Assembly: GCA_030980935.1 (NCBI GenBank)
Contig: GCA_030980935.1_3059.1
Length of the DNA: 64,000 nucleotides
Origin: a phage
Strand: one strand, 5' to 3'
The notes under the pieces were generated by a model. The model had not been told where the DNA came from and did no database searches. It saw only the letters and a program-made list of their open reading frames with translations. Shown piece after piece: positions 5,248 to 62,300 of the stretch (positions within the stretch are counted from its first letter, which is position 1; each line of letters begins with the position of its first letter). Both the position numbers and the translations under genes were made by a program.

Positions 5248-5310
5248 TAGTTGTATAGTACCACAGTATGCTTTGGTTGTAAACCGTTTTGTGAAAAAAT
5301 TTTAAAATAA
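5248..5310 (-). promoter_or_regulatory. T4 early promoter cassette upstream of motA
   Basis: On minus strand: AT-rich UP element, GTTTAC -35 (5278-5283), TGgTAcTAT -10, conserved leader. Confidence 0.6.
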
Positions 5311-5334
5311 AAAGGGAGAGCCGAGGCTCTCCCT
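5311..5334 (-). terminator. GC-rich hairpin between gene 52 and the motA promoter
   Basis: GGGAGAGC cgag GCTCTCCC, 8-bp stem. Confidence 0.5.
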
Positions 5335-5484
5335 AAAATTACTGCATGACTGTGATAACTGTCATGATAACACGTTGAATTCCGAACGCAAGAAGACCTC
5401 CTGCTACGGCTGGAACGACACCTAAACCCGCCAGTAAAATGCTACCAGATACTAATGCAGCGCTTGTAATACCAATGAATGGAC

Positions 5485-6813
5485 TCATTTGATTTCCTCT
5501 AAATCTTTAGTGTATTCAGTAACTACATCAGTAGTTTTCCAATATTCGTTTTCTTCTTTTTTGGCTTTAGCTTCTTCAGCAAGTTTCTTCGCTTCATCGG
5601 AAGTCATATGAAAAATATTCATTCCAACTAATTTATCAACATAAGAAGAATACATATCGATTTTCGAAAGTTCTTCGGTCAGTTCTTTACGAGTTTTACC
5701 CTGTACAACAATTACACCTGAAATTACTTTCTTAATGAAATGTGCCTTGGCAAAGGCTAAACGAAAAGCTGATTCAGTTTCTTTAATTTTGTTATCAATT
5801 CGTTTTTGAACATAAGTTTTACGAACTTCAACAAAGTCTTTAATTAAATCAACTACGTTATCGTAAACTTGTAGTTTTCCTTTCTCATTAATAACCGTAA
5901 TATTCTGAGAACGACGCTCAATCAACCCGAAGTCTTTCATAATTTTTGCATGGCGTTCTTCTTCGTTATCGCTCAAAGAATATTCTTTACGGAATTTAAC
6001 TTTAAAGCCGAAGCCGTGCTCACCACAAGCATCATCCCATGTAATGAAGCCTTTATCTTCAAGTGGGTCTAAGATTTTACTCACATAAGTTTCACGATCA
6101 TACTTATACGGAATCTCAGTGATATGCATTTGAGTTCGTGAAGTAAACTTATATGTTCCACGAATTTCATATTGCCCATCAATTTCAACGACTTCACCAC
6201 GAAATTCTGGGAATTCTACCTTCGGTTTAGTTACTTTCTTTCCTTGAAGAGCTTGTAATACAGCTTTCTTAACAGAAGAAACGCTATGAGGAAGAATGTA
6301 AGTTGCATAACCAGTTGCAATACCGGAAACGCCATTAAGAAGAACAGTAGGAATAATAGGCAAATAGAAAGCAGGCGGAATGTGTTCTTTATCTTGATGT
6401 ACCGGAGCATACTCAGTATCTTTATATACGTTATAGAAATTTTTACTTACACGAGCAAAAATATAACGACTTGCCGCTGCTTTTTGAACGGTACGAGAAC
6501 CGAAGTTTCCTTGACCATCTAACAGAGGAAAGTTATTATTCCAAGTGTTAGCCATCAAAGCACCTGCGTCTTGTGCAGAGTTTTCACCATGATGATATCC
6601 AAGGTCAGCTACACCACCTGCAATAGAAGCAAGTTTGTGAAACTTATCTTTATTTCCTCGTGCCAAATCAAGAGCTCGAGCAATAACAAATCGTTGAACT
6701 GGCTTAAATCCATCAATCATATTTGGAATGGCACGATTTTCAACCGTGTACATAGCATAAGCCAATGCTTCATTATCAATGATACTTTTTAAATCGCGAT
6801 TATTCAGTTGCAT
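5485..6813 (-). CDS. 52: DNA topoisomerase II medium subunit gp52 (GyrA-like)
   Basis: 442 aa; GyrA-type N-terminus (FKPVQRFV); size and position as T4 gp52. Confidence 0.9.
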   Translation of the reverse strand: MQLNNRDLKSIIDNEALAYAMYTVENRAIPNMIDGFKPVQRFVIARALDLARGNKDKFHKLASIAGGVADLGYHHGENSAQDAGALMANTWNNNFPLLDGQGNFGSRTVQKAAASRYIFARVSKNFYNVYKDTEYAPVHQDKEHIPPAFYLPIIPTVLLNGVSGIATGYATYILPHSVSSVKKAVLQALQGKKVTKPKVEFPEFRGEVVEIDGQYEIRGTYKFTSRTQMHITEIPYKYDRETYVSKILDPLEDKGFITWDDACGEHGFGFKVKFRKEYSLSDNEEERHAKIMKDFGLIERRSQNITVINEKGKLQVYDNVVDLIKDFVEVRKTYVQKRIDNKIKETESAFRLAFAKAHFIKKVISGVIVVQGKTRKELTEELSKIDMYSSYVDKLVGMNIFHMTSDEAKKLAEEAKAKKEENEYWKTTDVVTEYTKDLEEIK

Positions 6814-6817
6814 AAAT

Positions 6818-6958
6818 TTACCATACTAGTGAATGTAGTGCCATAATAACATCAGAAATGAAAAGCACGACTTGAATTAATCCGAACATTACTCCATAAT
6901 ATAGTGCTACCAATAAAGTAGCAAGGGCTAGTGAATAGCCCAAGATTTTCTTAATCAT
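6818..6958 (-). CDS. Small hydrophobic peptide (46 aa), directly upstream of gene 52
   Basis: Hand-translated MIKKILGYSLALATLLVALYYGVMFGLIQVV...; single TM-like segment. Confidence 0.35.
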   Translation of the reverse strand: MIKKILGYSLALATLLVALYYGVMFGLIQVVLFISDVIMALHSLVW

Positions 6959-7109
6959 TAGTAGATAACAACACAAATGTTAAATATGCACACATACCCT
7001 GGGCTAAAGCTTGTGAAAACACACTGCTAGCATCGATACAGATAGTTAAAACACATGCTACTATCCAACAAATAAATGAAATAACTCCTAATAATTTTGC
7101 GATATTCAT
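6951..7109 (-). CDS. ac: Small membrane protein, likely ac (acriflavine sensitivity)
   Basis: 52 aa hydrophobic ORF between 52 and stp, where T4 ac lies; GAGGAAAA RBS. Confidence 0.55.
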   Translation of the reverse strand: MNIAKLLGVISFICWIVACVLTICIDASSVFSQALAQGMCAYLTFVLLSTND

Positions 7110-7116
7110 ATTTTCC

Positions 7117-7655: not shown

Positions 7656-7713
7656 ATTAATTTCCTCTAAATTATTTTCTACTCCAAGGCCGCATGAATA
7701 CGCGGCCATTAAA

Positions 7714-8263: not shown

Positions 8264-8362
8264 AGTAAACGTTTAATACATCAATCATTAAAACGATTGG
8301 GAATATACTCAAAACTACTAGTATTATAACTACATTCCATATAGCTTTAACAATCTTTTTCA
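8250..8362 (-). CDS. Small membrane peptide (37 aa)
   Basis: Track ORF 8250..8498 trimmed: its N-terminal extension runs through an early promoter cassette; real start is the ATG after GGAGGAACAGAAA. Confidence 0.35.
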
Positions 8363-8384
8363 TTTTCTGTTCCTCCGTAGTTGA

Positions 8385-8445
8385 TAGGGTAATAGTACCA
8401 CGGAAGAACAGTCTTGTAAACAACTTTTTTAAAAATATTCGTAAT
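8385..8445 (-). promoter_or_regulatory. T4 early promoter cassette
   Basis: GTTTAC (8415-8420) and conserved -10/leader block. Confidence 0.5.
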
Positions 8446-8879: not shown

Positions 8880-9094
8880 TAATCCGCTAAAAGATCGACG
8901 ATTGCATCACGAAGACACTTATTCGCAATACGTTTAAGGGCAATTTCAGTTTCTGGAGCATTTTGAATAATCATCGAATTCAACTCAGCCTCAGCAAACT
9001 GAAGTTCTTTAACTAGTTCAGCTTTATATTTCCCTTGCCCTTTCTTAGCCTTTGTCCGTTTTAATTCAGCTGTAGTAAACATTTTATTCTCCAA
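8876..9094 (-). CDS. Hypothetical protein (72 aa)
   Basis: Track ORF directly downstream of an early promoter cassette. Confidence 0.5.
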   Translation of the reverse strand: MENKMFTTAELKRTKAKKGQGKYKAELVKELQFAEAELNSMIIQNAPETEIALKRIANKCLRDAIVDLLADY

Positions 9095-9109
9095 ATCCGT
9101 ATTAGTTGA

Positions 9110-9175
9110 TAGTTGTATAGTACCACAGTCCTTGTGGTATGTAAACTGTTTTATGAAATTTTTTTAAATAGAAAG
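9110..9175 (-). promoter_or_regulatory. T4 early promoter cassette
   Basis: GTTTAC (9141-9146), conserved gtggtactatacaactatcaac block, AT-rich UP. Confidence 0.55.
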
Positions 9176-9721: not shown

Positions 9722-9784
9722 TAAACTTTCCTTTTACGTCGGAATCACTGATATTCATATAAATCATAATTTCTCTTAAAACAA

Positions 9785-9800
9785 AAGGGCCGAAGCCCCT
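9785..9800 (-). terminator. UUCG-tetraloop hairpin
   Basis: GGGC cgaa GCCC (UUCG on minus-strand transcript). Confidence 0.5.
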
Positions 9801-9804
9801 TATT

Positions 9805-9999
9805 TTATTTGAATTGTGCAATTCTTTTCTCTAAACATTCAGCATAAGATTTCATTGAGATAAACTGCGAAAGTAGCAGTTCTTGCTCAACTGCACTAAC
9901 TGTTAGAAACTTTGCGCTTTCTAAAAATTTGCTCAGTGCATTAATTTTGAGCATTAATTGATCGTATTCTTCTTTTACTCGTGCTTGATAACCTAACAT
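9805..9999 (-). CDS. Hypothetical protein (64 aa)
   Basis: Track ORF flanked by two tetraloop hairpins. Confidence 0.45.
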   Translation of the reverse strand: MLGYQARVKEEYDQLMLKINALSKFLESAKFLTVSAVEQELLLSQFISMKSYAECLEKRIAQFK

Positions 10000-10017
10000 A
10001 ATTTTCCTTAATATGAT

Positions 10018-10033
10018 AAGGGCCGAAGCCCTT
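10018..10033 (-). terminator. UUCG-tetraloop hairpin at rIIB 3' end
   Basis: GGGC cgaa GCCC overlapping the rIIB stop codon. Confidence 0.5.
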
Positions 10034-10970
10034 ATTTAAATTGTTCAGTAACGTCTTCAACTACTTCGTATTGGCAGGTACGCATTTTAGCATCGTTGTA
10101 ATCAATCGGAATTGATACTACATCACGTGGATGTACTTTAACTTTTACAACTCGGCTGGTTGAACTGCCAAAGTGACGAATATAAGATTTAGAACACACA
10201 TGCAGACCACGAGAACAAGTTTGTGTATCATCGTCATTCACACGAGTACGCGGCATTTTAACTACTTTACCAGGACTGTTATCAAAGGTGTTTGAGTGAC
10301 AGTCAAAGTAGTTGTCACGAACTACTTTCCAAGCATAGAAGTAACCATCTTCTGTAATTTCAATATCGTTTGCTACCAAGAAATCAAAGAGTCGAGATAC
10401 CGCTTTCTGGCTTGGGTTTTCCAGCAGATTTTCCAAGAACGGAAAATAAAATTCAAAGTTTTCACCTTTTTCCATCGAATCGAGAATACGATCAACTAAA
10501 CCAGACCGTAATTCGATATTTTGATAGAACAAGCTTCCGCCTTCAATTCGAACATCGCCGGAAATATATTTTTCAACAGCGCGACGAACATTAATTTTTT
10601 GCGCAGCTTCTTCCAGCTTATCCGCTACAAGCAGATTAAGAATTTCCTGGAAGTTTGAATGAGTATTAGGAGTTGCGTTATAAGTTACACCGTCAACAGT
10701 AATTGAAATGAATTTTTTAGATGCATTCCAAATAATGTCAGATTTAGCAACTGGAGCAATAACTGCATCGCTATTAACTTTAACTGTAATATCACCGCTA
10801 ATAGTAACTTTAGGGCGTTTAGCTTCTTCAGCATTTTTCAAAACACGACGGATTGTGTCAACCGATACATCCTTCCAATAAGCTAATTCCTGCTGAGTGT
10901 AATTACCACTTGAATACAGTTTAACAATTTCAGCTTGTTCGTTTTTGGTCAGGCATTTAATATTGTACAT
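10032..10970 (-). CDS. rIIB: rIIB protein
   Basis: 312 aa, immediately downstream of rIIA. Confidence 0.9.
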   Translation of the reverse strand: MYNIKCLTKNEQAEIVKLYSSGNYTQQELAYWKDVSVDTIRRVLKNAEEAKRPKVTISGDITVKVNSDAVIAPVAKSDIIWNASKKFISITVDGVTYNATPNTHSNFQEILNLLVADKLEEAAQKINVRRAVEKYISGDVRIEGGSLFYQNIELRSGLVDRILDSMEKGENFEFYFPFLENLLENPSQKAVSRLFDFLVANDIEITEDGYFYAWKVVRDNYFDCHSNTFDNSPGKVVKMPRTRVNDDDTQTCSRGLHVCSKSYIRHFGSSTSRVVKVKVHPRDVVSIPIDYNDAKMRTCQYEVVEDVTEQFK

Positions 10971-10981
10971 AATTTTCCTTA

Positions 10982-13159
10982 TTAGGCCGCAAGGGCCTTC
11001 ATAGTTTTAGCGATTTGAGAAACTTCATCATCACTTAAAGAGTTGCGATAACCGATGAAGTCGGAAACAATACGGAATTTCTTGGTAAACTCAGCAACCA
11101 TTTTATCACTATTTTTTGAAGCATTATTTGACAATACATCAAAAAGATTAGTTACTGTCCAGATGTCATGACCGATGGTACCTTTTCCACCGTTGAAATA
11201 TATGCCCTGTAATGAACTAACCATATTACCAAGGCGAGTATATTCTTCAGAAACTTCATCTACACTGAAGTACTTCATCATAAAATCTAGTTCAGGATAC
11301 TTAATAATTTTATCAATATATCGTTTAGCTGAACTTGAATAACCTACATACTTATCATAATCTACAGCATCAAAAGCATCTACATATAAATCACGCAGAG
11401 TTTCAAAAATACATTGGCACTGACCGAGTTCTTTTACCTTTTTCTGTAAAAGCGGACGAATAACATAAAATTCATTAATGCCAATAAGATTAGCCATACG
11501 AATCAAAATATTCATAGATGGATGACAAAGTGATGTAGTACCATCCATAGAGAAAATATCAGAACGATGCATATACGCTACATAACCAGTAATTTCATCT
11601 GCTTCTGACGTAAGTGTAAATAATTCCTCTTTTTCCCAACGCCCATCTTTAATTTCAAACTTAAATGCTGTAGCAGCTTTAGGACGAGGAGCTTTACTTT
11701 TAACTACCTTTGGAATATAGCTTTTAACTAAAGCTTCAATTTCTGACAAATAATGAATGTTAACTTCATCACTTTCAAACATTGCCATAATATCAGGAAG
11801 CAAATCAATCTGCGATTCTACTTCTGGATTAATAAACAGAAGGCGTTCGTTGTGATGAATATTCAAAGTGTTATTAAATTCACTATCATCTAACGCATGT
11901 GCTAATCCACGGACAATATTAACACGATTTTTAATATTATCAATAACGATATTAATTTTTGTTGTATTAATACCAAACAGACGATAACTTGATGCAACGG
12001 CTGAAGTTTCATGGCTTTGCTTAATGCGTTTCAGTCGAGGGTCAAGATTTACTTCATACACAACTCCTGCATTGCATAACTTACTGTCAGGTTCAAACAT
12101 GCTCTGCATTTTCTTATATGACAGATTTTTAGTCGTGAATTTGACTGAATTACTAATCATATAATCTCGAGCAGAATACCCCATCTTCATCAATTCACGA
12201 TATGTGTGACGAGGAGATGTAGATTCTTTAAATCGTTTTACATCTTCATTAAATGCTTTCTCACTAAGCTCTTTAACTCGTTCAATAATATTTTTACGAG
12301 TGCGATCATCTAATGAAAGAGCTTCACGTGATGGAGCAATATCAAGTGAACCCATTGGAAATTTAATGTAATTCACTTCATTGCGAATGCTTAGCCAGTT
12401 ACGGTCTCTAATAACACCATCGATAGGATAAACAATACCGCCATAGATAGCATATAATCCACCACGATCTGGCCAATATCTTTCTGGATTTACGCCATAA
12501 TAATCATCAAAATCCGGAAAATAATCAATTTCGCGGTCAAGACCATTAATGATAGCCAAATCTTTGAATGGTCGCATGATATAAGAAACTTCATAAGCAA
12601 AGTTTCTAAAGTCTTTTTCTTCAACTGGAACTACGATTTCAATACCAGTTTTATCATTTGGACCCATTTCTTTTACGAATGTAGGTTTAATTTGTGGACC
12701 ATCGCCATCCATGTAAGCTACATAACCACGAATTTCACCTTTATGATACGAAGTAATACTAAACGTATCAGTATAACTAAACGGAGATTTAGAACCTAAA
12801 CCAAATCCGCCAATAAAGTCATTAGATTCAGCCTTAGATGAACTGAAGTATGAATTATACAAACCAGGAGAATTATCATCACCCTGAATATCAAAATCAC
12901 TCATACCCGGACCAAAATCTCGGCAAACAAATCGTGGATCTAAACGTCCAGGAACTTGAATGATAAATTTTTCAGGATTTCCATTGAGAGCATGGGCATC
13001 AATCATGTTGGTAATCAATTCACGAACAACTGCGCGAATCTTATTTGTATACAAATCAGATGACAGAATTTTAAATACTTTAGGATTTGCTGCGATGCTA
13101 AATGCTTTTGATTTAGAACCATTGCCAAGAATTGTTTCTTTTTCAGTGGTGATAATCAT
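10982..13159 (-). CDS. rIIA: rIIA protein
   Basis: 725 aa; N-terminal GHKL-like ATPase region; canonical rIIA-rIIB pair. Confidence 0.9.
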
Positions 13160-13169
13160 AATTTCCTCA

Positions 13170-13373
13170 TTAATTCATATTACGCTTAATAACTTCAGCA
13201 ACTTCTAGTAGTTCATCTTTAGTTGCAGTGTCGGATTGAATTTTATCTCTAATATCTTTAAAGCGGTTTTTAAATTCTTCGGCTTCTCCCATATCGAAAA
13301 AGCGTTGAATGATTCTATATTCTCGATGAACTGCTTTATCAAAAAGTTCTAAATTTACTCTATATGATTTCAT
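13170..13373 (-). CDS. Hypothetical protein rIIA.1-like (67 aa)
   Basis: Track ORF between gene 39 and rIIA. Confidence 0.55.
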
Positions 13374-13394: not shown

Positions 13395-13432
13395 ATTAAT
13401 TATACCACATCCTTGTGGTAAAGTAAATTACT
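13395..13432 (-). promoter_or_regulatory. T4 early promoter upstream of rIIA.1/rIIA
   Basis: Minus-strand ATTTAC ... TGGTATAAT with 18-nt spacer; overlaps 3' end of gene 39. Confidence 0.55.
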
Positions 13433-15248: not shown

Positions 15249-15297
15249 TTATCCTCGTTTGGTTTCGGGAATATTATACTCCGGTAATCATAAAGCT

Positions 15298-15315
15298 AAA
15301 GGCCCGAAGGCCTTT
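15298..15315 (-). terminator. UUCG-tetraloop hairpin
   Basis: GGCC cgaa GGCC followed by T-run. Confidence 0.5.
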
Positions 15316-15587
15316 TATTTAAAACGAATAGTTGAATCCTTAAAGAACAGCCCAGAACATACTGTTCCTTCTACTTTCTGCCCGGTAGGTCCAATAGCAC
15401 GAAATCCAGTATGCTGGAAATCATTTTCAGAGCAACCGAACCAATTATATCCAGTGATTTCAATATTAGTAAAACCACTTGAAGACAAAACTTTGGTTGC
15501 ATTATCAGCATCAGTACATCCTACTAAAGATACTGCTAATACTAATGCCGCGATAGAACGATTAACATATTTCATAATTTCACTCAA
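15315..15587 (-). CDS. Putative lipoprotein (90 aa)
   Basis: Signal peptide with lipobox LVGC; hairpin follows the stop. Confidence 0.5.
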   Translation of the reverse strand: MSEIMKYVNRSIAALVLAVSLVGCTDADNATKVLSSSGFTNIEITGYNWFGCSENDFQHTGFRAIGPTGQKVEGTVCSGLFFKDSTIRFK

Positions 15588-16558: not shown

Positions 16559-16773
16559 TAATAAATTTCCTTCCAGTAAGTTGTACCGTCTTCAGTGATT
16601 TCACGGAATACACCATAAATCGGTTGTTTATCACCAACCTTTTCATACACATAAACCGAAGTCAAGTGAGTAAACTTGATGGTGTGTTCCTTTTGAACTA
16701 CTACCAAATCTGGATCGAATAATACATCTTCAAATTCGTCATTAGTGCAATTCTGAACAATTTTACGTTTCAT
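16558..16773 (-). CDS. cef: Hypothetical protein, possibly Cef (71 aa)
   Basis: 71 aa ORF after goF-like gene; synteny only. Confidence 0.4.
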
Positions 16774-16786
16774 TACAATTTCCTCA

Positions 16787-17068
16787 TTAATTAAACATTG
16801 GAGCGATACGTTTCAGAAGAGTAGCAGCACCTTTAGCGAATTTTACATCATGAAAAACAGTTTCTTCTTCTGTAACAACTCGAACTTTAATATTTTCACA
16901 ATCCCAATTTTTACGAACAATCTTCAAAAGCTGCAGTAAATCTTTACATTCAGCAATATCGATAACACATCCACGAGAATCTTCCATTATCGCACGATAA
17001 CCGTAAGCCATACCATAATCGTTAAAAGATTGCTCGATGATAATTAAGTTTTCCATTTTATTCTCCAA
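16787..17068 (-). CDS. Hypothetical protein (93 aa)
   Basis: Track ORF downstream of an early promoter cassette. Confidence 0.5.
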   Translation of the reverse strand: MENKMENLIIIEQSFNDYGMAYGYRAIMEDSRGCVIDIAECKDLLQLLKIVRKNWDCENIKVRVVTEEETVFHDVKFAKGAATLLKRIAPMFN

Positions 17069-17153
17069 GTTGTTTTCTGTATCAGTAGTTGATATTGATA
17101 TAGTACCATAATCAACTACTGATGTATATAGTTTTATGAAAAAAATTTAAACT

Positions 17154-17718: not shown

Positions 17719-18156
17719 CTAGCTTACACGAACATTAATCACTGCGCTGCGAGGAACTACAGAGTACTCTCCAGCATGAACTACGTTCAGAAGTTCAACA
17801 CCATCTTCAATCCACTGATCAGTCACCCATCCACCCACAGGATTCGCGAATGGACGACGAATATAAACTGCCTTACACAGTAGATCAGTTGGATCTTCAG
17901 GTTTTTCAATTTCTGTCAATAGACTAAAATCTTTTTCATAAATAATAAGCGATGACACCATTCCATAATAGTTTCTAATTTCAATATACATCATGCCGAT
18001 AAGAATTCCGCTATTAACACTAATAACAGTAAAAGGATATCCGCCAGTTAAAGCAAGAAGTTCACAAAACTTATTATGAGATGTATTAGACAGTACCGGA
18101 AAATTCTTAATTTCATCAAATTTTTTCAATTGATAAACAGCATTATTTTTAATCAT
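17719..18156 (-). CDS. MotB-related paralogue (145 aa)
   Basis: C-terminus VTDQWIEDGVELLNVVHAGEYSVVPRSAV parallels ITDQWVEDGVKLYNTVFLGTYKVIPESWI in the neighbouring gene. Confidence 0.5.
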   Translation of the reverse strand: MIKNNAVYQLKKFDEIKNFPVLSNTSHNKFCELLALTGGYPFTVISVNSGILIGMMYIEIRNYYGMVSSLIIYEKDFSLLTEIEKPEDPTDLLCKAVYIRRPFANPVGGWVTDQWIEDGVELLNVVHAGEYSVVPRSAVINVRVS

Positions 18157-18166
18157 AATTTTCTCT

Positions 18167-18718
18167 TTAATCTAAGGTAATAAAGCCTTTTAATTCGGCA
18201 TGCGATTTGCGGAACATTACTTGATGTCCGCCAATGATAACTTGGTCATCTGGCACTTCATAAATCGCAATGTACATTCCACGTTCTTTTAAGTCTTCAC
18301 GCTCTTCTCGAGTGAACCATCTCATCATATCATATTCACTAGCGAAAGCAAAATGATATAATGCAATAAACCACAATGGAATATAATTTTCAATTCGTGA
18401 ATAATCTTTATTCCATTTAGTTTTAATAACATCATTAGCATTTTCAACTAATAACTTATCATCGTGTGGAATAGGAATACTTTCATGGCTTTCATAATTA
18501 TCGCTATGATGATGAAATGACGATGAATTAATACCGCAAAATTTTAGCCAAGTTCGAGTTTTCATAGAATCAAATCCACGATAAGGAGTTGATTGAACGC
18601 ATAACTCTTGCCTAATTTTGACTATACCACTATCATCATTTAATGCGCTAAACGATGATTCAACACGATAAATTTTCATTTTATTATCCTCAGTAGCTAT
18701 GGTGTTATAATACCACAA
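18167..18718 (-). CDS. Hypothetical protein (183 aa)
   Basis: Track ORF. Confidence 0.5.
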   Translation of the reverse strand: MWYYNTIATEDNKMKIYRVESSFSALNDDSGIVKIRQELCVQSTPYRGFDSMKTRTWLKFCGINSSSFHHHSDNYESHESIPIPHDDKLLVENANDVIKTKWNKDYSRIENYIPLWFIALYHFAFASEYDMMRWFTREEREDLKERGMYIAIYEVPDDQVIIGGHQVMFRKSHAELKGFITLD

Positions 18719-29645: not shown

Positions 29646-29810
29646 TTACTCTTCTTTTTCTTTAGATTCCTCTTTCTTCTTTTTAGGAATCTGTTCAGGA
29701 CCTTTATTTACTACAGCACCTGACGTTGTTCCAGTAGAGATATTTTCAGGATTACCACCTGAATCTCCAGCGACCATATCTTCTTTAATAAATTCTTTAT
29801 ATGTTTTCAT
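29646..29810 (-). CDS. Small K/E-rich ORF (54 aa)
   Basis: Hand-translated MKTYKEFIKEDMVAGDSGGNPEN...KKKKEESKEKEE. Confidence 0.35.
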   Translation of the reverse strand: MKTYKEFIKEDMVAGDSGGNPENISTGTTSGAVVNKGPEQIPKKKKEESKEKEE

Positions 29811-29811
29811 A

Positions 29812-30168
29812 TTAACCTCTATTCATAAAAGCATTAAAAATTTGGTCATCAATAGATGGCGCAGTAATATTTTCTGCATCATTTAGCAAATCATTAATTT
29901 CATCAGATAGCATAACACATGTACCTTTATTTCCTGTAATTGTTACTGCACAATTACGAACGTTTTCTTTATCAAATTTTAGGTTAATATTTTCGTAGTG
30001 AAAATCCTTTAATGCCGAATATATCTTTAAAATGAAATTGTCTTTTACTACAATAAACCCAACCTCACTATTAAAACGCGGTTCATGGAAACTGTAATAA
30101 ACCTTTTCATCTATAAAATCGTATGAAATTTTTTCCATTTTTAAATATGAAAATTCAGAACTATACAT
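29812..30168 (-). CDS. Hypothetical protein (118 aa), 61.x family
   Basis: C-terminus SIDDQIFNAFMNRG shared with neighbour. Confidence 0.5.
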   Translation of the reverse strand: MYSSEFSYLKMEKISYDFIDEKVYYSFHEPRFNSEVGFIVVKDNFILKIYSALKDFHYENINLKFDKENVRNCAVTITGNKGTCVMLSDEINDLLNDAENITAPSIDDQIFNAFMNRG

Positions 30169-30169
30169 A

Positions 30170-31557: not shown

Positions 31558-31584
31558 AACAATCTCCTCATTTAACCAACAAGA

Positions 31585-31620
31585 CTACTATACCATAGTC
31601 TTGTCAGCTTGTAAACTAAA
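31585..31620 (-). promoter_or_regulatory. T4 early promoter upstream of dmd
   Basis: GTTTAC (31611-31616) with TGGTATAG -10-like; overlaps gene 41 stop. Confidence 0.45.
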
Positions 31621-37031: not shown

Positions 37032-37280
37032 TCAAATGCAAGTAGTAATTACTCCAGTAGTGCTTATGCAGGTATTACCCATTTGCACACCTAAAGATCC
37101 ATTTGTATTCACATGAAGATTATCATCAATTTTAACTGATATTTTACCATTAGTGTGAATAACGGTGCTAGATTTAATCACAGGTTGAGTATCATTTTCA
37201 ACACTAACAAATGGAACTGCTACTAATGCAACTAAACAAACTGCTAAGCATCCCATAACAATTTTCATTTTATTCTCCAA
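37032..37280 (-). CDS. Secreted or membrane small protein (82 aa)
   Basis: N-terminal signal-like segment; directly downstream of early promoter cassette. Confidence 0.5.
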   Translation of the reverse strand: MENKMKIVMGCLAVCLVALVAVPFVSVENDTQPVIKSSTVIHTNGKISVKIDDNLHVNTNGSLGVQMGNTCISTTGVITTCI

Positions 37281-37299
37281 ATCTGTATCAGTAGTTGAT

Positions 37300-37365
37300 A
37301 GTTGTATAGTACCATGGAAGAACAGTCTTGTAAACAGTTTTGTGAAAATTTTTTAGGGAATTCTA
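37300..37365 (-). promoter_or_regulatory. T4 early promoter cassette
   Basis: GTTTAC (37330-37335), conserved leader identical to the 9110 copy. Confidence 0.55.
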
Positions 37366-40148: not shown

Positions 40149-40206
40149 AGATATTCCTTAGTTTATAGCCCGAGTTATTAGGCTCTTGATATATTATACT
40201 CCAAAT

Positions 40207-40224
40207 AAGGGGCCGAAGCCCCTT
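40207..40224 (-). terminator. UUCG-tetraloop hairpin between regA and gene 43
   Basis: GGGGC cgaa GCCCC. Confidence 0.55.
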
Positions 40225-40226
40225 GC

Positions 40227-40595
40227 TTAATTACCAATCGTATATTTAGGAACGAGTTTCCATTCATGTTTTTGTTTAAAAGAAATAACTCGGAAGTTAT
40301 TAGTTAAATCTTTCATAAAAGTTCTTTGACCAGGAACGATTTCAATCAGTCCCCAATCTTCTAACAGCCATGCAATCGAATCACGACGAACTTCATCTTC
40401 TTCTGTCATTTCAACTTGACGGCCATCCATACGAAGCATTTCTTTAAAATGAACAATATAGTATAGTCCTTTTTTCTGAAGAATATGACAGGACTGATAC
40501 AGAACTTTATCTTTATTATTAGCAATTCCCATACGAGTCAAAGTTTCTTTTACTTTCAGAAAATCTTCAGGTTTTTTAAGAGTAATTTCAATCAT
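40227..40595 (-). CDS. regA: Translational repressor RegA
   Basis: 122 aa, MIEITLKKPEDFLKVKETLTRMGIANN... Confidence 0.9.
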   Translation of the reverse strand: MIEITLKKPEDFLKVKETLTRMGIANNKDKVLYQSCHILQKKGLYYIVHFKEMLRMDGRQVEMTEEDEVRRDSIAWLLEDWGLIEIVPGQRTFMKDLTNNFRVISFKQKHEWKLVPKYTIGN

Positions 40596-41161: not shown

Positions 41162-42121
41162 TCACTTCCACTGCATTTCACATGCTAACTGAATGAAAAG
41201 ATAAGCTAGATGCAATTCAGTATTAGCTGCAATACCATGATACTGATTATTTTCGCCGACAATTTCGTACATACGAATAATACTTTGTGGAGTTACACGT
41301 GAATAGATTTCTTCGGCAAGTTTACCCACGAACCACGAATAATCGGCTGCGTATTTTGGTGCTAAAGCTCTGAGTTGTTTAACATCTTTATTTTTGAGAG
41401 ACTCAAGAACATCATCAATAGCACCACGATCGTTAGTAACCAGTGATAAAATACCAGCATCCAAAACACCTTTAGATGAATAACTATCGAGCTCGCCAAT
41501 AGTTTTACGAAAATCAGGAAAATTCTTTTTAACCAAAGCTGCTACAACTTTCATATCAGCTATAGCAATTCCTTCATGCTTACAGATTTCAGTCAACCGA
41601 CGAATCATCTGCTTCATCATTTCAATTTTATCTTCATCGGTCGGTTGACCGAATGTGATAACTCGACAGCGTGACTGAAGCGGTTTAATAATACCATCAA
41701 TATTGTTAGCAGTAATAATAATACTACAGTTTGAACTATAAGCTTCCATAAAGGAACGAAGATGTCGCTGAGATTCTGCTAAACCTGAACGGTCAAATTC
41801 ATCAATAACAATTACCTTTTGACGACCATCAAATGAAGCGGCGCTGGCAAAATTAGTCAAAGGACCACGAACGAAATCAATTTTACAATCTGATCCATTC
41901 ACAAACATCATATCAGCATTTACATCATGACACAATGCTTTTGCTACAGTTGTTTTACCTGTTCCTGGAGAAGGAGAATGAAGAATAATATGTGGAATCT
42001 TACCTTTACTTGTAATAGATTTAAAGGTTTCTTTATCAAAGGCGGGAAGAATACATTCATCGATAGTAGATGGACGATATTTCTGTTCAAGAATGTGTTC
42101 TTTTTCATTTACGGTAATCAT
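41162..42121 (-). CDS. 44: Clamp loader ATPase subunit gp44
   Basis: AAA+ Walker A SPGTGKTT; trimmed to MITVNEKEH... start. Confidence 0.85.
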
Positions 42122-42154
42122 AATTTCCTCATTCAAGTTTTAGTGTAAATTATA

Positions 42155-42170
42155 AAGGGCCGAAGCCCTC
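42155..42170 (-). terminator. UUCG-tetraloop hairpin after gene 45
   Basis: GGGC cgaa GCCC. Confidence 0.5.
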
Positions 42171-42172
42171 TA

Positions 42173-42859
42173 TTAAAAATCGTGGGTAGAATCAGCTTCA
42201 AGAGCTACTACATAATTCGCGTGTTCACCTTCAAATTTAGCAGCACCCTGTTTACCTTTTGCCCAAAGCAGAAGTTTGTAATTTCCTGGTTGCATTTTCA
42301 TATTTGCCATATTGATAATGAAATTAAATGTATTTTCACCATCATAATCACCAAGAGTCAAAGAATATTTAACGCGGGTCAAAGCAGAATCTTCTACTTT
42401 ATTAAAACCGTTAATTACGATTTTACCTTCTTTTACCGTGATAGCAATTGTATCAATTTGCAGACCACGAGATACACGCAACAGTTGTTGAAGGTCTTCA
42501 GCTTTAATTTCAGTAACAACAGATGCTACCGGGAATGGAATTGGTTTATTAGGAGCAACTACTGTACTCGGATCGGCTGCTGGCCAAAAAATTGTTGAGC
42601 GGGCATCAGCAATTTTAATATTTCCATCTTCTGACTGGGAAATTTCTGCATCATCATTAACTAGAGACAGAATACCGAGAAAACCGTTCAAATCGTAAAT
42701 TGCTACATCAAAATCAATAACGTCAGAAATATTTGCTTCCGCATAAGTTGTACCATTAACCGCACGAGTCATAATAAATTGACCGGATTTAAGCATAATA
42801 CCGGAGTTAATAGTAGCGAAATTTTTAAGCAGAGCAGTAGTATCTTTAGACAGTTTCAT
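42173..42859 (-). CDS. 45: Sliding clamp gp45
   Basis: 228 aa, MKLSKDTTALLKNFATINSGIML... Confidence 0.9.
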   Translation of the reverse strand: MKLSKDTTALLKNFATINSGIMLKSGQFIMTRAVNGTTYAEANISDVIDFDVAIYDLNGFLGILSLVNDDAEISQSEDGNIKIADARSTIFWPAADPSTVVAPNKPIPFPVASVVTEIKAEDLQQLLRVSRGLQIDTIAITVKEGKIVINGFNKVEDSALTRVKYSLTLGDYDGENTFNFIINMANMKMQPGNYKLLLWAKGKQGAAKFEGEHANYVVALEADSTHDF

Positions 42860-46840: not shown

Positions 46841-46864
46841 TATATCAAACTCCGTATAAAGCTA

Positions 46865-46881
46865 AAGGGCCGAAGCCCTTT
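46865..46881 (-). terminator. UUCG-tetraloop hairpin after alpha-gt
   Basis: GGGC cgaa GCCC overlapping the stop codon. Confidence 0.5.
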
Positions 46882-48082
46882 ATTTTGTAATAATGTCAAA
46901 CTGTTCTTTAAAGCAGAAGCTTGAATCTTGGTGCTGATACAAAAATTCATATGCTTTTTCTCGCTCACGGTCATAAAGAGCTCGGTCAGATGACAGTTCT
47001 TTAATACGTTCAAATGTTGATTCCATGTCATTTTCATCAAACCAAACGATACCGCTATCATGCGAAATTAGCGGAGTATTATCAACACGGAATTTTAAAT
47101 TTTCGCCAGTAGATTTCCAAAATACCGGAATTGTTCCACATGCACCAAGCTCGAGATGAGTATATTCTAAAGAACGTTGTAGATATTTTTTATCCAACTT
47201 ACTCAACTGATAACCAAAACCGGATTTACTCATACGTTCAAGCATTTCGCTATTTACATAACGGTCAAGAATTTGCGTTGGCAAATTAGGAGCAATTTTA
47301 ATTTGGTCTACTTGATGAAGACGATAATACTCGTATGGAATTCCTTTTTCTTTAATAGGAATGAACGCTGGAGAACGTTCCAGACCTTCCATAATAGTAC
47401 TTAGTCCTGCAGGTTTAAGATGTTTTTCGTGAAAATCAAACATCTGATAAAAACCTTTCCATGTAGTCGTACGACCAATCCAACGGTTGATATTCATGTT
47501 AATTTCAGAAACATCTTTCCAGTAGGTTGATCGAACCTTCGCAATATCCATAGGAGGCTGAAAGTTATATACGGTCGGTGCTTCTTCAATATCATCAAAC
47601 AGAGAAACTGTTTCTGGATACCATTCTTTCATCAAAACTTTATTAAAATCGCCATTATCAGAATGACTAAAAATAACATCAGCTCGACGAACAGTTTCTT
47701 CTAATCCCAAATTTCGACGCAAAGAAAGAGAAGAATGGTCATGCTGATAAACTACAACACGAACAGAAGGTTTAATGTTATCAATAATTTTTTTATAGTT
47801 ATTAATAGTGTCTTCTTCAACCGAAGTAGCAGGAACTGAATTGATAATTAGAATATCACAATCATTTACCAGCTTAAGTGTTTTATCGTATTCTTTTGCC
47901 AATAAAACCGGAATTGAAAATGATTTATAATCATGCGCGCAATTACGAGTAAATGATTTATCTTTAGCATAAACCAAAGTCACTTCATGACCATTTTTAA
48001 TAAACCAATCACGTTGCTCAAGAGAAAATTTAGTTACACCGCAACCTTCAAGACCTCGAGCCATAAAAATGCATACTTTCAT
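46880..48082 (-). CDS. DNA alpha-glucosyltransferase
   Basis: 400 aa, MKVCIFMARGLEGCGVTKFSLEQRDWFIKNGHEVT..., GT-B-like; matches T4 alpha-gt. Confidence 0.85.
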   Translation of the reverse strand: MKVCIFMARGLEGCGVTKFSLEQRDWFIKNGHEVTLVYAKDKSFTRNCAHDYKSFSIPVLLAKEYDKTLKLVNDCDILIINSVPATSVEEDTINNYKKIIDNIKPSVRVVVYQHDHSSLSLRRNLGLEETVRRADVIFSHSDNGDFNKVLMKEWYPETVSLFDDIEEAPTVYNFQPPMDIAKVRSTYWKDVSEINMNINRWIGRTTTWKGFYQMFDFHEKHLKPAGLSTIMEGLERSPAFIPIKEKGIPYEYYRLHQVDQIKIAPNLPTQILDRYVNSEMLERMSKSGFGYQLSKLDKKYLQRSLEYTHLELGACGTIPVFWKSTGENLKFRVDNTPLISHDSGIVWFDENDMESTFERIKELSSDRALYDREREKAYEFLYQHQDSSFCFKEQFDIITK

Positions 48083-50465: not shown

Positions 50466-50503
50466 ACATTATCCTCAATTGCGTTAAAATTTTATTATCC
50501 AAA

Positions 50504-50519
50504 AAGGGCCGAAGCCCTT
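50504..50519 (-). terminator. UUCG-tetraloop hairpin
   Basis: GGGC cgaa GCCC. Confidence 0.5.
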
Positions 50520-50718
50520 AGCTAAACTGTTTGGCACCCTTCCAGCCTTCGTACATCATTGCGGCTGATATTAATATTGCTCCTGAGCAACTTGAATATT
50601 TGTGATTCCAAAACCAGTTTAGAAAAACTTCGTCATCAATACCTTGGGCTATCATATTTTCAAAGAACTGACGACGAGCTTCGGCAATTCGCTGCGATAA
50701 TTTAGATTCAGGATTCAT
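50518..50718 (-). CDS. Hypothetical protein (66 aa)
   Basis: Track ORF; hairpin after stop. Confidence 0.45.
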   Translation of the reverse strand: MNPESKLSQRIAEARRQFFENMIAQGIDDEVFLNWFWNHKYSSCSGAILISAAMMYEGWKGAKQFS

Positions 50719-51326: not shown

Positions 51327-51351
51327 ATCAATTCCTCAAAGGTAATTCATG

Positions 51352-52123: not shown

Positions 52124-52594
52124 TTAATCATGTGTCCACACCCCATCGGTATTTGACCAAAGTCGCTGATTATCTGATCCTCGCCACAGCTTTTTGGTCG
52201 GAAGATTTTTCTCATACTTCCCATCAATAATAACATCAACATATTTAAGCATTTCTAGTTGTTTAATATCTTCAAACTTATATCCTGTCCACAACCAAAT
52301 GCTTTTACTGGGATAAAGATTTTTTACTGTTTGAACGATGCAATGAATAACATCTCGGTTATCAGGATAGAGAGGGTCTCCTCCAGTTATAGTTAATCCT
52401 TCTATATAATCATTATTCAAACATTCAATTAATTGTTCTAGTGTTTCACCAGTGAATGGAATACCATTTCTAGCATTCCATGTTGATTTATTATAACACC
52501 CTTCACATTTATGCAAACAACCTGTAACGAAAAGAACGACCCTGCAACCAGGGCCATTCACAAAATCGCAAGGATAAAATCTATCATAATTCAT
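52124..52594 (-). CDS. nrdG: Anaerobic ribonucleotide reductase activase NrdG (radical SAM)
   Basis: 156 aa; CxxxCxxC cluster motif (CLHKCEGC). Confidence 0.9.
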   Translation of the reverse strand: MNYDRFYPCDFVNGPGCRVVLFVTGCLHKCEGCYNKSTWNARNGIPFTGETLEQLIECLNNDYIEGLTITGGDPLYPDNRDVIHCIVQTVKNLYPSKSIWLWTGYKFEDIKQLEMLKYVDVIIDGKYEKNLPTKKLWRGSDNQRLWSNTDGVWTHD

Positions 52595-56890: not shown

Positions 56891-56891
56891 T

Positions 56892-58259: not shown

Positions 58260-59291
58260 TTACTTAATTAACTGTAAAGCTTGTTCAAGACGATCAAGAC
58301 GATTAACAGATTCTTCCCAAATCCTTTTAGCCTGCTCATATTCTTTCTGCGCTTTATTAGAAATTTCTAGAACTTCTTTATAAGCTTTTTCTAGTGCAAT
58401 AACTTCTGGACGAATTTCTACCGGTTCAGGTGAATCGTCAAGACATTCCATTAGTTCTTCAAGGGTAGTTTCTTCTTTAGGAGTATTCACAATTTCATCA
58501 CATTTTTGTTGGTAAATTTCTTTATCAGTCGATGAGCACGCACACTTTACTTCACGAAGGCTAATTATAATTTTATATCCTTCCCAACCACACATATTTT
58601 TGAAAGGATATGTATGAATACTTTTTACAGTTTCCATACAGCCCAAAACCGCCTCTAATTGATAAGTTATAGTGCTAGCAATTGAGAAAAATTTATTAAT
58701 ATTCTTTTGGTTAGCGTTTGGTGTAAAAAATCCATAATTCACAAAAATAGCTACTTTATTTTCATCAAGCTCATATTCTTTTACGATAATCATATCAGAA
58801 GCCAAAGGATGAATTTGACGATAATCGCCATAACATAATTTAGAAGCTGATTTTAGAATTTGTCCTTTGAAAAGTCTGAAATTACTAATCCAACGACGAG
58901 TAAAAATATTCTCAGGGTATTCTTTATTATTAAGATGATAAGAATTAACATCACCGAACCAATTATATCCTACTACATCTTTAGTTCGTTTAATTTCTTT
59001 CCCAAATTTACTAAGAATATCTCTGTTGACTAAGTATGAAAGAAGACGAGACCCTTTAAAGGTTTTCTTAATGTCATCTTTATCTGTACGACTAGAAATT
59101 TCACGAACTTCATGAATAAATTTGCCGGAAGAAACAATACTTGCATCAGTATTATTGAGCCATTGATTGATAATAGAAATCACACTATTCTGACTAGACA
59201 TAGGTTTAACTTTATCATCAATAACGCTGTTGAACGATTTAATATATTCGTTGCGAGTCATATTAATCTCCTCAGTAGAAAGTAAGAACAT
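58260..59291 (-). CDS. Coiled-coil-tailed protein, tandem family member 2 (343 aa)
   Basis: C-terminal tail ALEKAYKEVLEISNKAQKEYEQAKRIWEESVNRLDRLEQALQLIK. Confidence 0.5.
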   Translation of the reverse strand: MFLLSTEEINMTRNEYIKSFNSVIDDKVKPMSSQNSVISIINQWLNNTDASIVSSGKFIHEVREISSRTDKDDIKKTFKGSRLLSYLVNRDILSKFGKEIKRTKDVVGYNWFGDVNSYHLNNKEYPENIFTRRWISNFRLFKGQILKSASKLCYGDYRQIHPLASDMIIVKEYELDENKVAIFVNYGFFTPNANQKNINKFFSIASTITYQLEAVLGCMETVKSIHTYPFKNMCGWEGYKIIISLREVKCACSSTDKEIYQQKCDEIVNTPKEETTLEELMECLDDSPEPVEIRPEVIALEKAYKEVLEISNKAQKEYEQAKRIWEESVNRLDRLEQALQLIK

Positions 59292-59322
59292 TATACCACA
59301 TCCTTGTGGCGAAGTAAACTAG
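59288..59322 (-). promoter_or_regulatory. T4 early promoter inside the coiled-coil gene array
   Basis: GTTTAC (59314-59319), TGGTATAAT -10. Confidence 0.5.
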
Positions 59323-60323: not shown

Positions 60324-60331
60324 AGTGTTCC

Positions 60332-61234
60332 TTAAGATTTAAGTAAATCAACAATTTTAATTAATTTTTCACGCTCAGATTTAGCTTTACTACTCAATCC
60401 AGATAGTCTGAAAATTTCATCGTCATACTGTTGAATAGAAATATTCAGCTCTTCAATTTGCTTATTAAAATAATCAATTTGCTCAGAATGTTTTTCATTA
60501 CTGCGAACTGGTACAGGTTTTGTAGGCAATTTAGTTAAACTGGATTCATCCGGGCGATAAATTAAAATACAACTTGAACCAATCGGGCATTTAGCACCAG
60601 ACACATATTCTAATGTTCCGGCTTCTTTTAAAACTTCAAAAGCTAAACAGAGATGATGCCCCATATTAACATAATCTGTAGAGCGAGCTCTGATATAATA
60701 ATCATCGCCGCGAATACTAAATTTAAAGCATTTAAGGTCTTCTGTATTATTGGTCTTAAAAATCATTTGTTTATCTAGACCTTTAGCTAATCGAGCGCCT
60801 AATGCTAATAATCGTCGTTGATTTTCCCACAAATCCGCAATCATTTGATCGAATGACAATTTCGGCATTAGTCTACCATAAAGGTCATATCCTTTATTAT
60901 AATTGCGAAGAATTTCACTTGCATTAATACGAGACAATGCTCCAATTTTATTAAGGGCTTTCATAATGCGATTAGATAAACCCATTCCAGACCCGTTTGT
61001 TCGCTGTAAATGTTTTTCTAATCCAAATCCAATATCAACTTTAAACTTATCTAAAATTTCTGCATGAACATCTCTATCAATAACATTCAAATCCAAAGTT
61101 GGGTTAAATCTATGAAAAAATTTATCTGGCTCTCCACGACGAAGTACAGTCCATTCATTCAATTTTTTATTAACTAAAGATTTAATTACTGCATTGACAC
61201 TATTAATTACTACTGACATATTTTCCTCACTCAA
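60332..61234 (-). CDS. Coiled-coil-tailed protein, tandem family member 4 (300 aa)
   Basis: C-terminal tail ...QIEELNISIQQYDDEIFRLSGLSSKAKSEREKLIKIVDLLKS. Confidence 0.5.
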   Translation of the reverse strand: MSEENMSVVINSVNAVIKSLVNKKLNEWTVLRRGEPDKFFHRFNPTLDLNVIDRDVHAEILDKFKVDIGFGLEKHLQRTNGSGMGLSNRIMKALNKIGALSRINASEILRNYNKGYDLYGRLMPKLSFDQMIADLWENQRRLLALGARLAKGLDKQMIFKTNNTEDLKCFKFSIRGDDYYIRARSTDYVNMGHHLCLAFEVLKEAGTLEYVSGAKCPIGSSCILIYRPDESSLTKLPTKPVPVRSNEKHSEQIDYFNKQIEELNISIQQYDDEIFRLSGLSSKAKSEREKLIKIVDLLKS

Positions 61235-61634
61235 TTTTCAATTTTACTAATACGCAGAATATGATGGAAAAGACTATATAAGCACCACACACAGATTGAA
61301 CTAATACCATTCCAAAGAACCAAACAATATTATCAAACAGTGTCTGTTTTACGTCGAAAGGACGTAAACTTACAGTAATATTATCACCTTTTTCTATTGA
61401 AGAATACATCTCTGGGGAAATATATTCACTAAATCTATAACCGTCTTTGAGTTCATATACAGCAATAAACGATAAACTAGACCCCTTTCCTTGAGTTCCT
61501 GTAAGGGTATTAACTACAGTAACATCATAATCTTTATAATGCATATAATCATTAATAGCATAATAACCATATGCAATTACTATACATAAACAACATATCA
61601 ATAAATTCAATCTTTTAATTATCAACTGTTTCAT
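61227..61634 (-). CDS. Membrane protein (135 aa)
   Basis: N- and C-terminal TM segments. Confidence 0.5.
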   Translation of the reverse strand: MKQLIIKRLNLLICCLCIVIAYGYYAINDYMHYKDYDVTVVNTLTGTQGKGSSLSFIAVYELKDGYRFSEYISPEMYSSIEKGDNITVSLRPFDVKQTLFDNIVWFFGMVLVQSVCGAYIVFSIIFCVLVKLKIE

Positions 61635-61689
61635 AATAATCTCAATTAAAAGGGCTTAGAACCATTATACCATCCTTGGTATAAAGCGG

Positions 61690-62217
61690 TTATGCGAGTA
61701 CCGTCTTTAACCGTTCTTCAAACTTCCGAAGAGTATTCTGGCGTTCAGCTCTTTGCTTTTTATAAGTTTCAATACGCTCTGAAATGAGAGTGTATCGTTC
61801 ATTTACTGATTCTTTCATAAAATCAGGAATTTCACGAGAAGCTTTAATCTCGTCAAATTTATCAATAACAGCTTGCTCTTCAGCAATTAAGTTATCATAC
61901 ATCAAAATATCTTTCTTGATGAACTCAATATCTTCTTGAGTTACACGAGATAATTTAGATGCTTTATCCTTTTTGTACTGTTCATTAGTATCACGAGACC
62001 AGTGTAATGTACGATTTTTATTCGTATTTTTGTAAATTTCTACAATACCAATCTCATCGATAATAACGATCCAATTCCAACGAGATTTGTAAATTTGTCC
62101 TCCGTCAACCGTGATTTCACCTCCGATTGAGATGTCATTAAAGAACTTGCTTTGTGCTTCAGATTTAAATTTACCATCATTGTAGTTTACCAAGTTGAAA
62201 ATATCTTTAGCATTCAT
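61690..62217 (-). CDS. Hypothetical protein (about 175 aa)
   Basis: Track ORF 61690..62277 trimmed: N-terminal 20 codons are the transcribed promoter/leader cassette; real start MNAKDIFNLV... after GGAGGAACAGAAA. Confidence 0.45.
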   Translation of the reverse strand: MNAKDIFNLVNYNDGKFKSEAQSKFFNDISIGGEITVDGGQIYKSRWNWIVIIDEIGIVEIYKNTNKNRTLHWSRDTNEQYKKDKASKLSRVTQEDIEFIKKDILMYDNLIAEEQAVIDKFDEIKASREIPDFMKESVNERYTLISERIETYKKQRAERQNTLRKFEERLKTVLA

Positions 62218-62239
62218 TTTCTGTTCCTCCGTAGTTGAT

Positions 62240-62300
62240 AGTTGTATAGTACCACAGAGGAACGGTCTTGTAAACAACTAAAAGAAACTTCTTTCACAAT
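62240..62300 (-). promoter_or_regulatory. T4 early promoter cassette
   Basis: GTTTAC (62270-62275), conserved -10/leader; leader plus start context identical to the 8385 copy. Confidence 0.55.

Follow-up and report, generated by a model that had tools for sequence, protein, structure and literature searches.

A probable subfamily of paralogous early promoter cassettes, with leader exchange between copies, in a T4-like phage genome

Introduction

Liebig and Ruger are said to have devoted a 1989 study to the consensus sequences of T4 early promoters and ribosome-binding sites. The early promoters have been described as 'uber' promoters that combine UP, −35, TGn and −10 elements with additional consensus regions (Hinton, 2010; PMC2988021). 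Promoter-early stem-loop (PeSL) cassettes were defined in RB49 and phi1 by an AT-rich region, an early promoter, a Shine-Dalgarno sequence (SD), an ATG and an upstream stem-loop (Arbiol, 2010; PMC2839356), and were extended to T4/PST with the motif TTTACW-N17-TAYWAT and an exchange in the ndd region as a worked example (Comeau, 2014; PMC4122927). Strong sites for the RegB/S1 endoribonuclease, with the consensus GG*AGRAYARAA, lie mostly in the translation initiation regions of early genes and must be unpaired (PMC3014915); the mRNA of motA, whose product is itself an early protein, is cut by RegB within the SD (PMC2988021). Deletions and amplifications in experimentally evolved T4 are bounded by microhomologies of 6–10 bp (PMC9391042). 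Here we consider six promoter-leader-start cassettes in a 64,000-nucleotide stretch of phage DNA (NCBI GenBank assembly GCA_030980935.1, contig GCA_030980935.1_3059.1; hereafter the window), which an earlier sequence-only reading had singled out as near-identical repeats of 70–80 bp, potential sites of recombination and gene-cassette shuffling and possible carriers of a regulatory signal.

Results

Six cassettes share one layout on the early-gene strand

The window comes from a Tequatrovirus: over 4.5 kb it shows 97.5% identity with slur02/slur04 and 97.4% with RB14, its identity with T4 is about 97%, and it runs collinear with T4 between gene 37 and nrdC.10, by way of rIIB/rIIA. All six cassettes are present on its minus strand where the sequence-only reading had placed them, with the first base of the −10 hexamer TACTAT at 5260, 8397, 9122, 17105, 37311 and 62251, the positions by which we name the copies below. 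Cassette 1 (5211..5306) is the motA early promoter, composed of a UP region, GTTTACA, TGG-TACTAT, ACAACTATCAACTAC, a leader, GGAGATTAGAA and an ATG at 5213; the open reading frame (ORF) downstream is MotA, and the cassette is orthologous to T4 163649 and to copies in RB14 and T6. Cassette 2 (8361..8443), the promoter of the ndd.4 orthologue, carries the discriminator variant TACCCTATCAACTAC and the leader CGGAGGAACAGAAAATG. Cassette 3 (9080..9168) lies close to denB at the T4 P-ndd.6 position; its leader ends in TTGGAGAATAAAATG, and the ORFs behind it are highly variable between phages. Cassette 4 (17054..17151), between motB and cef, has a variant −35 and a 13-nt inverted repeat (ATCAGTAGTTGAT / ATCAACTACTGAT) around the −10, and is followed by an 89-amino-acid ORF. 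Cassette 5 (37266..37357), at the T4 P-imm.1 position, is followed by an extra 78-amino-acid ORF that is absent in T4, RB14 and T6, and cassette 6 (62215..62297), the promoter of the nrdC.8 orthologue, has a leader identical to that of cassette 2. T4, RB14 and T6 have equivalent, nearly base-identical cassettes at equivalent positions, oriented along the early-gene strand, and T4 has a seventh member of the subfamily before nrdC.10. A BLAST search with one 84-nt copy matched 3916 places in 544 phage records, at 7–10 per Tequatrovirus genome, and only single weak matches outside the genus.

The order of elements is the same in all six: an A/T-rich stretch, the −35, a 14-nt spacer, TGG, TACTAT, a start block, the leader and the ATG. 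The −35 reads GTTTACA in five copies and ATATACA in the 17105 copy, it stands 17 bp from the −10 in every copy, and AAAA/TTTT tracts 5′ of it form a UP-like region in five of the six, this region being weaker in 62251. The −10 is followed by (A/T)(C/A/T)(A/C)(A/C)(C/T)-TATCAACTA(C/A), in which TATCAACTA (predicted −1 to +8) is invariant, and then by a leader of 10–30 nt with GGAG before the ATG. The block conserved after the −10 had been put at about 30 nt, but the string quoted for it contained the TGn and the −10 themselves; the real block is 15 nt long (ACAACTATCAACTAC), nine of them invariant. Upstream of the −10, the non-consensus spacer AAGACTGTTCTTCC or a close variant is common to the 8397, 37311 and 62251 copies. 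With up to three mismatches allowed, the 24-mer TGGTACTATACAACTATCAACTAC occurs five times (0.00 expected), and TATCAACTA occurs seven times (1.03 expected), six of them in the cassettes. An unsupervised repeat search returned the family as its top match, 77 nt long, comprising the six copies and two weaker relatives at 51332 and 63922.

Conservation downstream of the −10 sets the six apart

A generic sigma70 consensus scan of the window gave 57 matches against 64 expected and was uninformative in this AT-rich genome, so we used a position weight matrix built from the phage's own promoters, which scored real sites at 13–53 against a best score of 10.6 in shuffled sequence. It returned 18–19 promoters, all on the early-gene strand, of which the 12 early promoters outside the six have TATAAT or TATTAT at −10 and lack the start block. 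When both sets were aligned on the −10, information content was comparable in the −35 (1.32 bits per position in the six, 1.46 in the other 12) and in TGn/−10 (1.64 and 1.34), whereas it was 0.95 against 0.33 at −6..−1 and 1.57 against 0.27 at +1..+9. The −35 and −10 are thus equally strong in the two sets, and it is the downstream block that only the six possess. Over −58..+9, pairs within the six agree on average at 46.8 of 67 positions, and pairs among the other 12 at 32.4 of 67.

The proposal that the copies share more than a promoter consensus is borne out: conservation reaches +8/+9 in all six, about +18 in three or four and the ATG in subsets, and so runs past +5, the downstream end of the interval (about −55 to +5) set beforehand as the extent of a repeat no longer than the known consensus. 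Convergence on an optimal strong-promoter sequence, without common ancestry or exchange, would account for the −35, TGn and −10, which all the early promoters have in common. We regard it as very improbable, for the identity covers positions that are uninformative in the other 12 (the spacer AAGACTGTTCTTCC, −6..+9 and the leaders), and entire leader modules have been swapped between paralogues in different phages, as described below. Since the downstream conservation is absent from the other 12, the repeats are better explained as paralogous copies than as a common consensus, and we consider it highly probable that the six form a closely related paralogous subfamily of strong T4-type early (Pe) promoter cassettes.

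Two observations concern promoters around this subfamily. A second common spacer, CCACAAGGAyGTGG, itself a small palindrome (CCACA...TGTGG), links the 9122, 13404 and 59295 promoters (e.g. 13399–13430 and 59290–59321), three promoters with otherwise different −10 types, two of which show 91% identity. The asiA early promoter (2756..2841, minus strand; TGATATTAT-aacaaaGTCAACTAA) is a distant relative.

A conserved start block

We counted the minimum number of changes within orthologue groups of the window, T4, RB14 and T6. There was one change in 56 columns of the −35, one in 63 of TGn/−10, one in 42 of −6..−1 and two in 56 of +1..+8, both from a 3-nt deletion; the spacer had seven in 98, and −6..+8 taken together three in 98. 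At the motA promoter of RB69, CTATCAA is kept around the predicted start while the remaining leader is different. These comparisons suggest that the start block is under constraint. A literature search for mapped T4 transcription start sites returned no usable +1 data, and the start-site preference of nicotinamide adenine dinucleotide (NAD) capping did not fit −3..+4 of the cassette promoters.

Might the start block CTATCAACTA (−2..+8; part of a TATCA-ACTAC-TGATA palindrome in some copies) be a dedicated cis-regulatory site, such as an operator or an initial-transcribed signal marking a subclass of early promoters for Alt responsiveness or early shut-off? Its core TATCAACTA does not vary among the six paralogues or among their orthologues in four phages, the RB69 promoter retains part of it, inverted repeats surround the −10 in three promoters, and reviews describe as unexplained both how early transcription is shut off and why Alt stimulates particular promoters (PMC2988021, PMC3014915). 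However, the block is missing from the 12 other early promoters of the window, so that it cannot signal shut-off for the class as a whole; the palindrome does not occur in 8397, 62251 or RB69 PmotA, and several orthologues have it broken by 3-nt deletions; the analysis turned up no candidate for a protein that binds it; and common descent with gene conversion accounts for the identity without any extra factor. We therefore think a dedicated site very unlikely, and marginally less likely still that CTATCAACTA and the inverted repeats around the −10 together mark a functionally distinct T4 early-promoter subclass through a start-site, initial-transcribed or operator-like signal. Were that so, such a signal could explain either why promoters respond differently to RNA polymerase modified by Alt or why early transcription is shut off so rapidly.

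The inverted repeats themselves are as follows. At 17086–17128 (minus strand), ATCAGTAGTTGAT and ATCAACTACTGAT form 13-bp arms separated by 17 nt including TGGTACTAT, an arrangement also found in T4, RB14 and T6; at about 63672–63699, 10-bp arms (GATAGGACTA[tgttatag]TAGTCCTATC), and at about 31575–31600, 9-bp arms (ACAAGACTA[tggtatag]TAGTCTTGT), enclose early-type −10 elements. Both arms of such repeats would be present only in read-through transcripts from upstream.

The shared leaders match RegB sites and are unstructured

Of the two pairs of leaders held to be identical through the ATG, one is exactly so, the 8397 and 62251 copies sharing CGGAGGAACAGAAAATG. The other, 9122 and 37311, shares the last 17 nt (ATTTGGAGAATAAAATG) and not the whole leader, and the 17105 copy also has TTGGAGAATAAAATG, so that (T)TTGGAGAATAAAATG is what the three have in common. 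This shared portion contains GGAGAATAAAA, an 11/11 match to GGAGRAYARAA that overlaps the SD and occurs exactly four times in the window, always at a minus-strand gene start (9082..9092, 17056–17066, 37268–37278 and 63650–63660). The motA SD, GGAGATTAGAA, matches the consensus at 10 of 11 positions. The suggestion of a regulatory signal beyond the sigma70 contacts is thus upheld, the signal being an already known one.

Structure prediction gave a different picture from that of a structured leader. The minimum free energies of the six leaders range from 0 to −4.7 kcal/mol, with z-scores of −0.4 to +1.4 against shuffles, i.e. no structure beyond chance, and an Rfam scan at gathering thresholds returned no match in the whole window. 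A riboswitch, thermosensor or protective 5′ hairpin could draw on a 4-bp AUCA/UGAU hairpin that is possible at the predicted 5′ end of three copies, yet this hairpin adds only −0.6 kcal/mol and is missing in the other three, and we give a structured leader hardly any credence. In light of the consensus match and the lack of structure, the leader that copies share unchanged as far as the ATG is most readily understood as a ribosome-binding site and RegB site in one, and the cassette leader as a putative instance of the known device by which early proteins are made only briefly.

A second leader family, CTACTGAGGAG(A/T)TTA..ATG, is found at the 59295, 31089 and 18712 promoters, outside the subfamily, and has CTACTGA in common with the TATCAACTACTGATAC leaders.

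Copies exchange modules between the −10 and the ATG

The denB-proximal promoter of OE5505 has the core of T6 (spacer TACCACAAGGACCG) and its downstream ORF (MKFKF...), but in place of the T6 leader, CTGATACGGATTTGGAGAATAAATG, it has one of the 8397/62251 type, CTACGGAGGAACAGAAAATG; the changeover lies inside the common TATCAACTAC block. In RB14, the leader at the imm.1 promoter, acagaaaacaacttggag, is that of the copy upstream of cef. Within the window, the spacer unites 8397, 37311 and 62251 whereas the SD box unites 9122, 17105 and 37311, and the two groupings are incompatible on any single tree. From these comparisons, exchange of segments between cassette copies, with crossovers that would fall between the −10 and the ATG, is well supported.

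Behind the 9122-type promoter and leader stand ndd.6 in T4, an ORF starting MFTTAELK... in the window and RB14, and one starting MKFKFYYAK... in T6. Among about 500 genomes, at least five structural classes occur downstream of this copy, and alignments break off either at the ATG (query position 381) or within the start block (query position 404). The 9122 copy is a genuine hotspot of ORF variation. The idea that the repeats are sites of homologous recombination therefore stands as far as module exchange between copies and the variable ORFs past 9122 are concerned; for use of the full 70–80 bp repeat it finds no support in this sample.

Gain and loss of small ORFs

Breakpoints were called from chained blastn alignments of the window with T4, RB14 and T6, which gave 24 distinct events once homing-endonuclease and tail-fibre events had been excluded, and were assigned to a gene start when they fell within −45..+15 of its ATG. 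They occurred at 3 of 16 promoter-associated gene starts and at 22 of 105 other starts (Fisher test, p=0.69), that is, without enrichment. For the six copies alone the figures were 3 of 6 against 22 of 115 starts (p=0.10), a trend that is not significant, and the same number of copies, three, abut an indel relative to T4, RB14 or T6. The 14 window-specific insertions have end homologies of 5–12 nt, typically AATRAAATG, AATTATG, TAAAATG or ATGAAAAT, and none is flanked by two whole cassettes. Gene-cassette shuffling as a special property of the repeats, which the sequence-only reading had envisaged, is accordingly not apparent in this sample: breakpoints are not concentrated at promoter-bearing starts, and the junctions are microhomologies at the SD-ATG. 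The shuffling idea itself has been published before, for PeSL elements (PMC2839356, PMC4122927).

The 78-amino-acid ORF (MKIVMGCLAVCLVALVA...; 37032–37268) lies between the imm.1-position promoter and imm.1, has the junction homology ATGAAAAT and begins with a signal-peptide- or lipoprotein-like N-terminus. The 89-amino-acid ORF between motB and cef (MENLIIIEQSFNDYG...; 16787–17056) is intact in the window, and T4, RB14 and T6 retain a frameshifted remnant with a common 200-bp internal deletion. A 49-nt direct repeat (94% identical; 29808–29856 and 30166–30214), made of an ORF 3′ end, GAGG and an ATG at a promoter-less gene junction, flanks a 358-bp unit on either side of which, and not across which, T4 and T6 align; from its sequence the unit looks like a gene-junction duplication or a promoter-less insertion by homologous recombination.

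Two other repeats lie at gene junctions and transcript ends. The motif ATTAATGAGGAAATTATGATTA (minus strand), in which stop, SD and start overlap, occurs four times (13153–13174, 16770–16791, 18150–18171 and 42115–42136), a recurrence that makes microhomology around the SD and ATG widespread even without promoters. Seven copies of AAGGGCCGAAGCCCTT (9770–9809, 10003–10042, 15284–15323, 40193–40232, 42140–42179, 46850–46889 and 50489–50528) read on the minus strand, the transcribed one, as hairpins with a GGGC-UUCG-GCCC tetraloop and a U-run behind it, an intrinsic terminator family.

T4 mobile elements missing from the window, namely the gene 60/mobA insertion that splits gene 39, segF, mobB, mobC and the nrdD I-TevII intron, are clean T4-specific insertions of 0.6–1.1 kb each (window 13763/13828, 26363/26409, 48073/48098, 52574–52594 and 53870/53873). 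The distal tail-fibre gene region (726–815 and 821–1102) holds in-frame tandem or dispersed repeats of 30 and 27 nt, aligns poorly with T4 (83% identity) and contains a replacement at 778–1086.

A promoter-ORF-promoter arrangement before nrdC.10

Where T4 has a single cassette before nrdC.10, the window has a promoter (63952), a 66-amino-acid ORF (MTTLNKRFGKAKSG...), a second promoter (about 63700) and then nrdC.10, the new elements (63661–63998) taking the place of the T4 cassette; the stretch keeps its T4 homology at either end, in the UP/−35 and in GGAGAATAAAATG. The upstream promoter, a diverged relative of the subfamily (TGATACTAT-agaCCTATCAAAACAAAT; 63906..63998, minus strand), is homologous in its UP/−35 to the seventh T4 copy (T4 55360), and after the −10 it has exactly the block of RB69 (Mosigvirus) PmotA, agaCCTATCAAAACAAAT, a hint that a promoter-ORF module has passed between genera. 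The second promoter-like cassette (63648..63707, minus strand) consists of TATACA-N17-TGT-TATAGT, CCTATCAAA and GGAGAATAAAATG, with a 10-bp inverted repeat around its −10. This locus is the only promoter-ORF-promoter case, and on its sequence it does look like the PeSL model.

We asked how far the cassettes could be PeSL-type mobile elements, in which homologous or site-specific recombination across the whole 70–80 bp repeat (mini-circle excision and integration) is the main driver of ORF turnover in this region. The nrdC.10 arrangement, the T4/PST elements with their ndd-region exchange (PMC4122927), the RB49/phi1 crossovers between the −10 and the SD/ATG (PMC2839356), the structural classes behind the 9122 copy and the three copies that adjoin indels all speak for it. 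But breakpoints are not enriched at promoters, the insertion ends share 5–12 nt, the only flanking repeat of any length (49 nt) lies at a gene junction that has no promoter, and beside the 17105 copy T4 has lost an internal part of the ORF, which is not a cassette exchange. Moreover, the stem-loop that defines the PeSL is found upstream of only one of the six: a terminator-type hairpin, AGGGAGAGCCTCGGCTCTCCCT followed by a T-run (5313..5334, minus strand; −16.5 kcal/mol), lies directly upstream of cassette 1, and the other five copies have a weak stem-loop or none there (−3.7 to −9.7 kcal/mol, without a T-run). Of the alternatives considered here this is the one to be taken most seriously, but we still hold it to be the less likely explanation of ORF turnover than short-homology recombination.

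Discussion

Taken together, our results lead us to propose that each cassette is a strong host sigma70 promoter (A/T-rich UP, GTTTACA −35, 17-bp spacer and TGn-extended −10, TGGTACTAT) fused to a fixed start-site or initial-transcribed block and then to a short, unstructured, A-rich leader that runs to the ATG, and whose Shine-Dalgarno sequence would double as a RegB/S1 target. Such a promoter would be used right after infection by the host RNA polymerase, whether unmodified or Alt-modified; its mRNA would be translated efficiently until RegB, cutting inside GGAG, inactivates it, which would limit early protein synthesis to a brief burst. Selection on the −35, the −10, the start block and the RegB/SD box may keep the copies alike, as may ectopic recombination or gene conversion between them. 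Gain and loss of small ORFs behind the cassettes would proceed mostly through the general short-homology (5–12 nt) recombination of T4 at the SD-ATG, for which the 70–80 bp repeat as such is not needed.

Several points weigh against parts of this proposal. The presumed +1, the A of CTATCAAC seven nucleotides past TACTAT, was placed by spacing alone. With so few changes in the constraint comparison, selection on the start block is not distinguishable from gene conversion. In the 8397 and 62251 leaders (GGAGGAACAGAA) GGAG is present, but the RegB consensus fits only with a 1-nt insertion. Finally, promoter activity of the cassettes and RegB cleavage of the copies other than motA are predictions from sequence.

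The modest value of the analysis is twofold. It provides clear comparative evidence for swaps of leader modules between paralogous promoters in natural Tequatrovirus genomes, and it finds that in this sample ORF indels are no commoner at promoter cassettes than at other gene starts, which tempers the PeSL-shuffling model for the T-even group. Otherwise it serves mainly as a sanity check, the sequence-only reading having rediscovered three known features of T4, namely its early promoters, cassettes of the PeSL type and ribosome-binding sites targeted by RegB; that reading is correct in outline and already known.

The comparison with described systems makes this explicit. The six resemble the T4 early (Pe) promoters (Hinton, 2010; see also Wilkens and Ruger, 1994; Miller et al., 2003) in architecture, genomic position and strand, and differ from them in nothing essential, being a tight subfamily within the class, marked by a TACTAT −10 and CTATCAACTA. 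Akin to PeSL cassettes, they are units of an AT-rich region, a sigma70 promoter, an SD and an ATG, dispersed in variable early regions, with ORF indels adjoining them (the ndd region included) and with mutual recombination between the −10 and the ATG; unlike PeSLs, they have the stem-loop only at the motA copy, mostly 5–12 nt SD-ATG junctions and no significant enrichment of breakpoints. They share with RegB/S1 sites (Durand et al., 2006; Uzan and Miller, 2010; PMC3014915) the GGAG in an early-gene SD, the A-rich tail, the lack of structure, the exact consensus match of GGAGAATAAAA and, in motA, an established target, whereas the 8397 and 62251 leaders depart from the 11-nt consensus and the sites other than that of motA are predicted ones. 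As in T4 short-homology recombination (Srikant et al., 2022; PMC9391042), repeats of 5–12 nt, in the range of 6–10 bp, bound the indels beside the cassettes, although the events considered here are natural differences between phages, deduced by comparison. The finding is thus real but ordinary, each part of it having an already known counterpart among T4 early promoters, PeSL cassettes, RegB sites or the microhomology recombination of T4.

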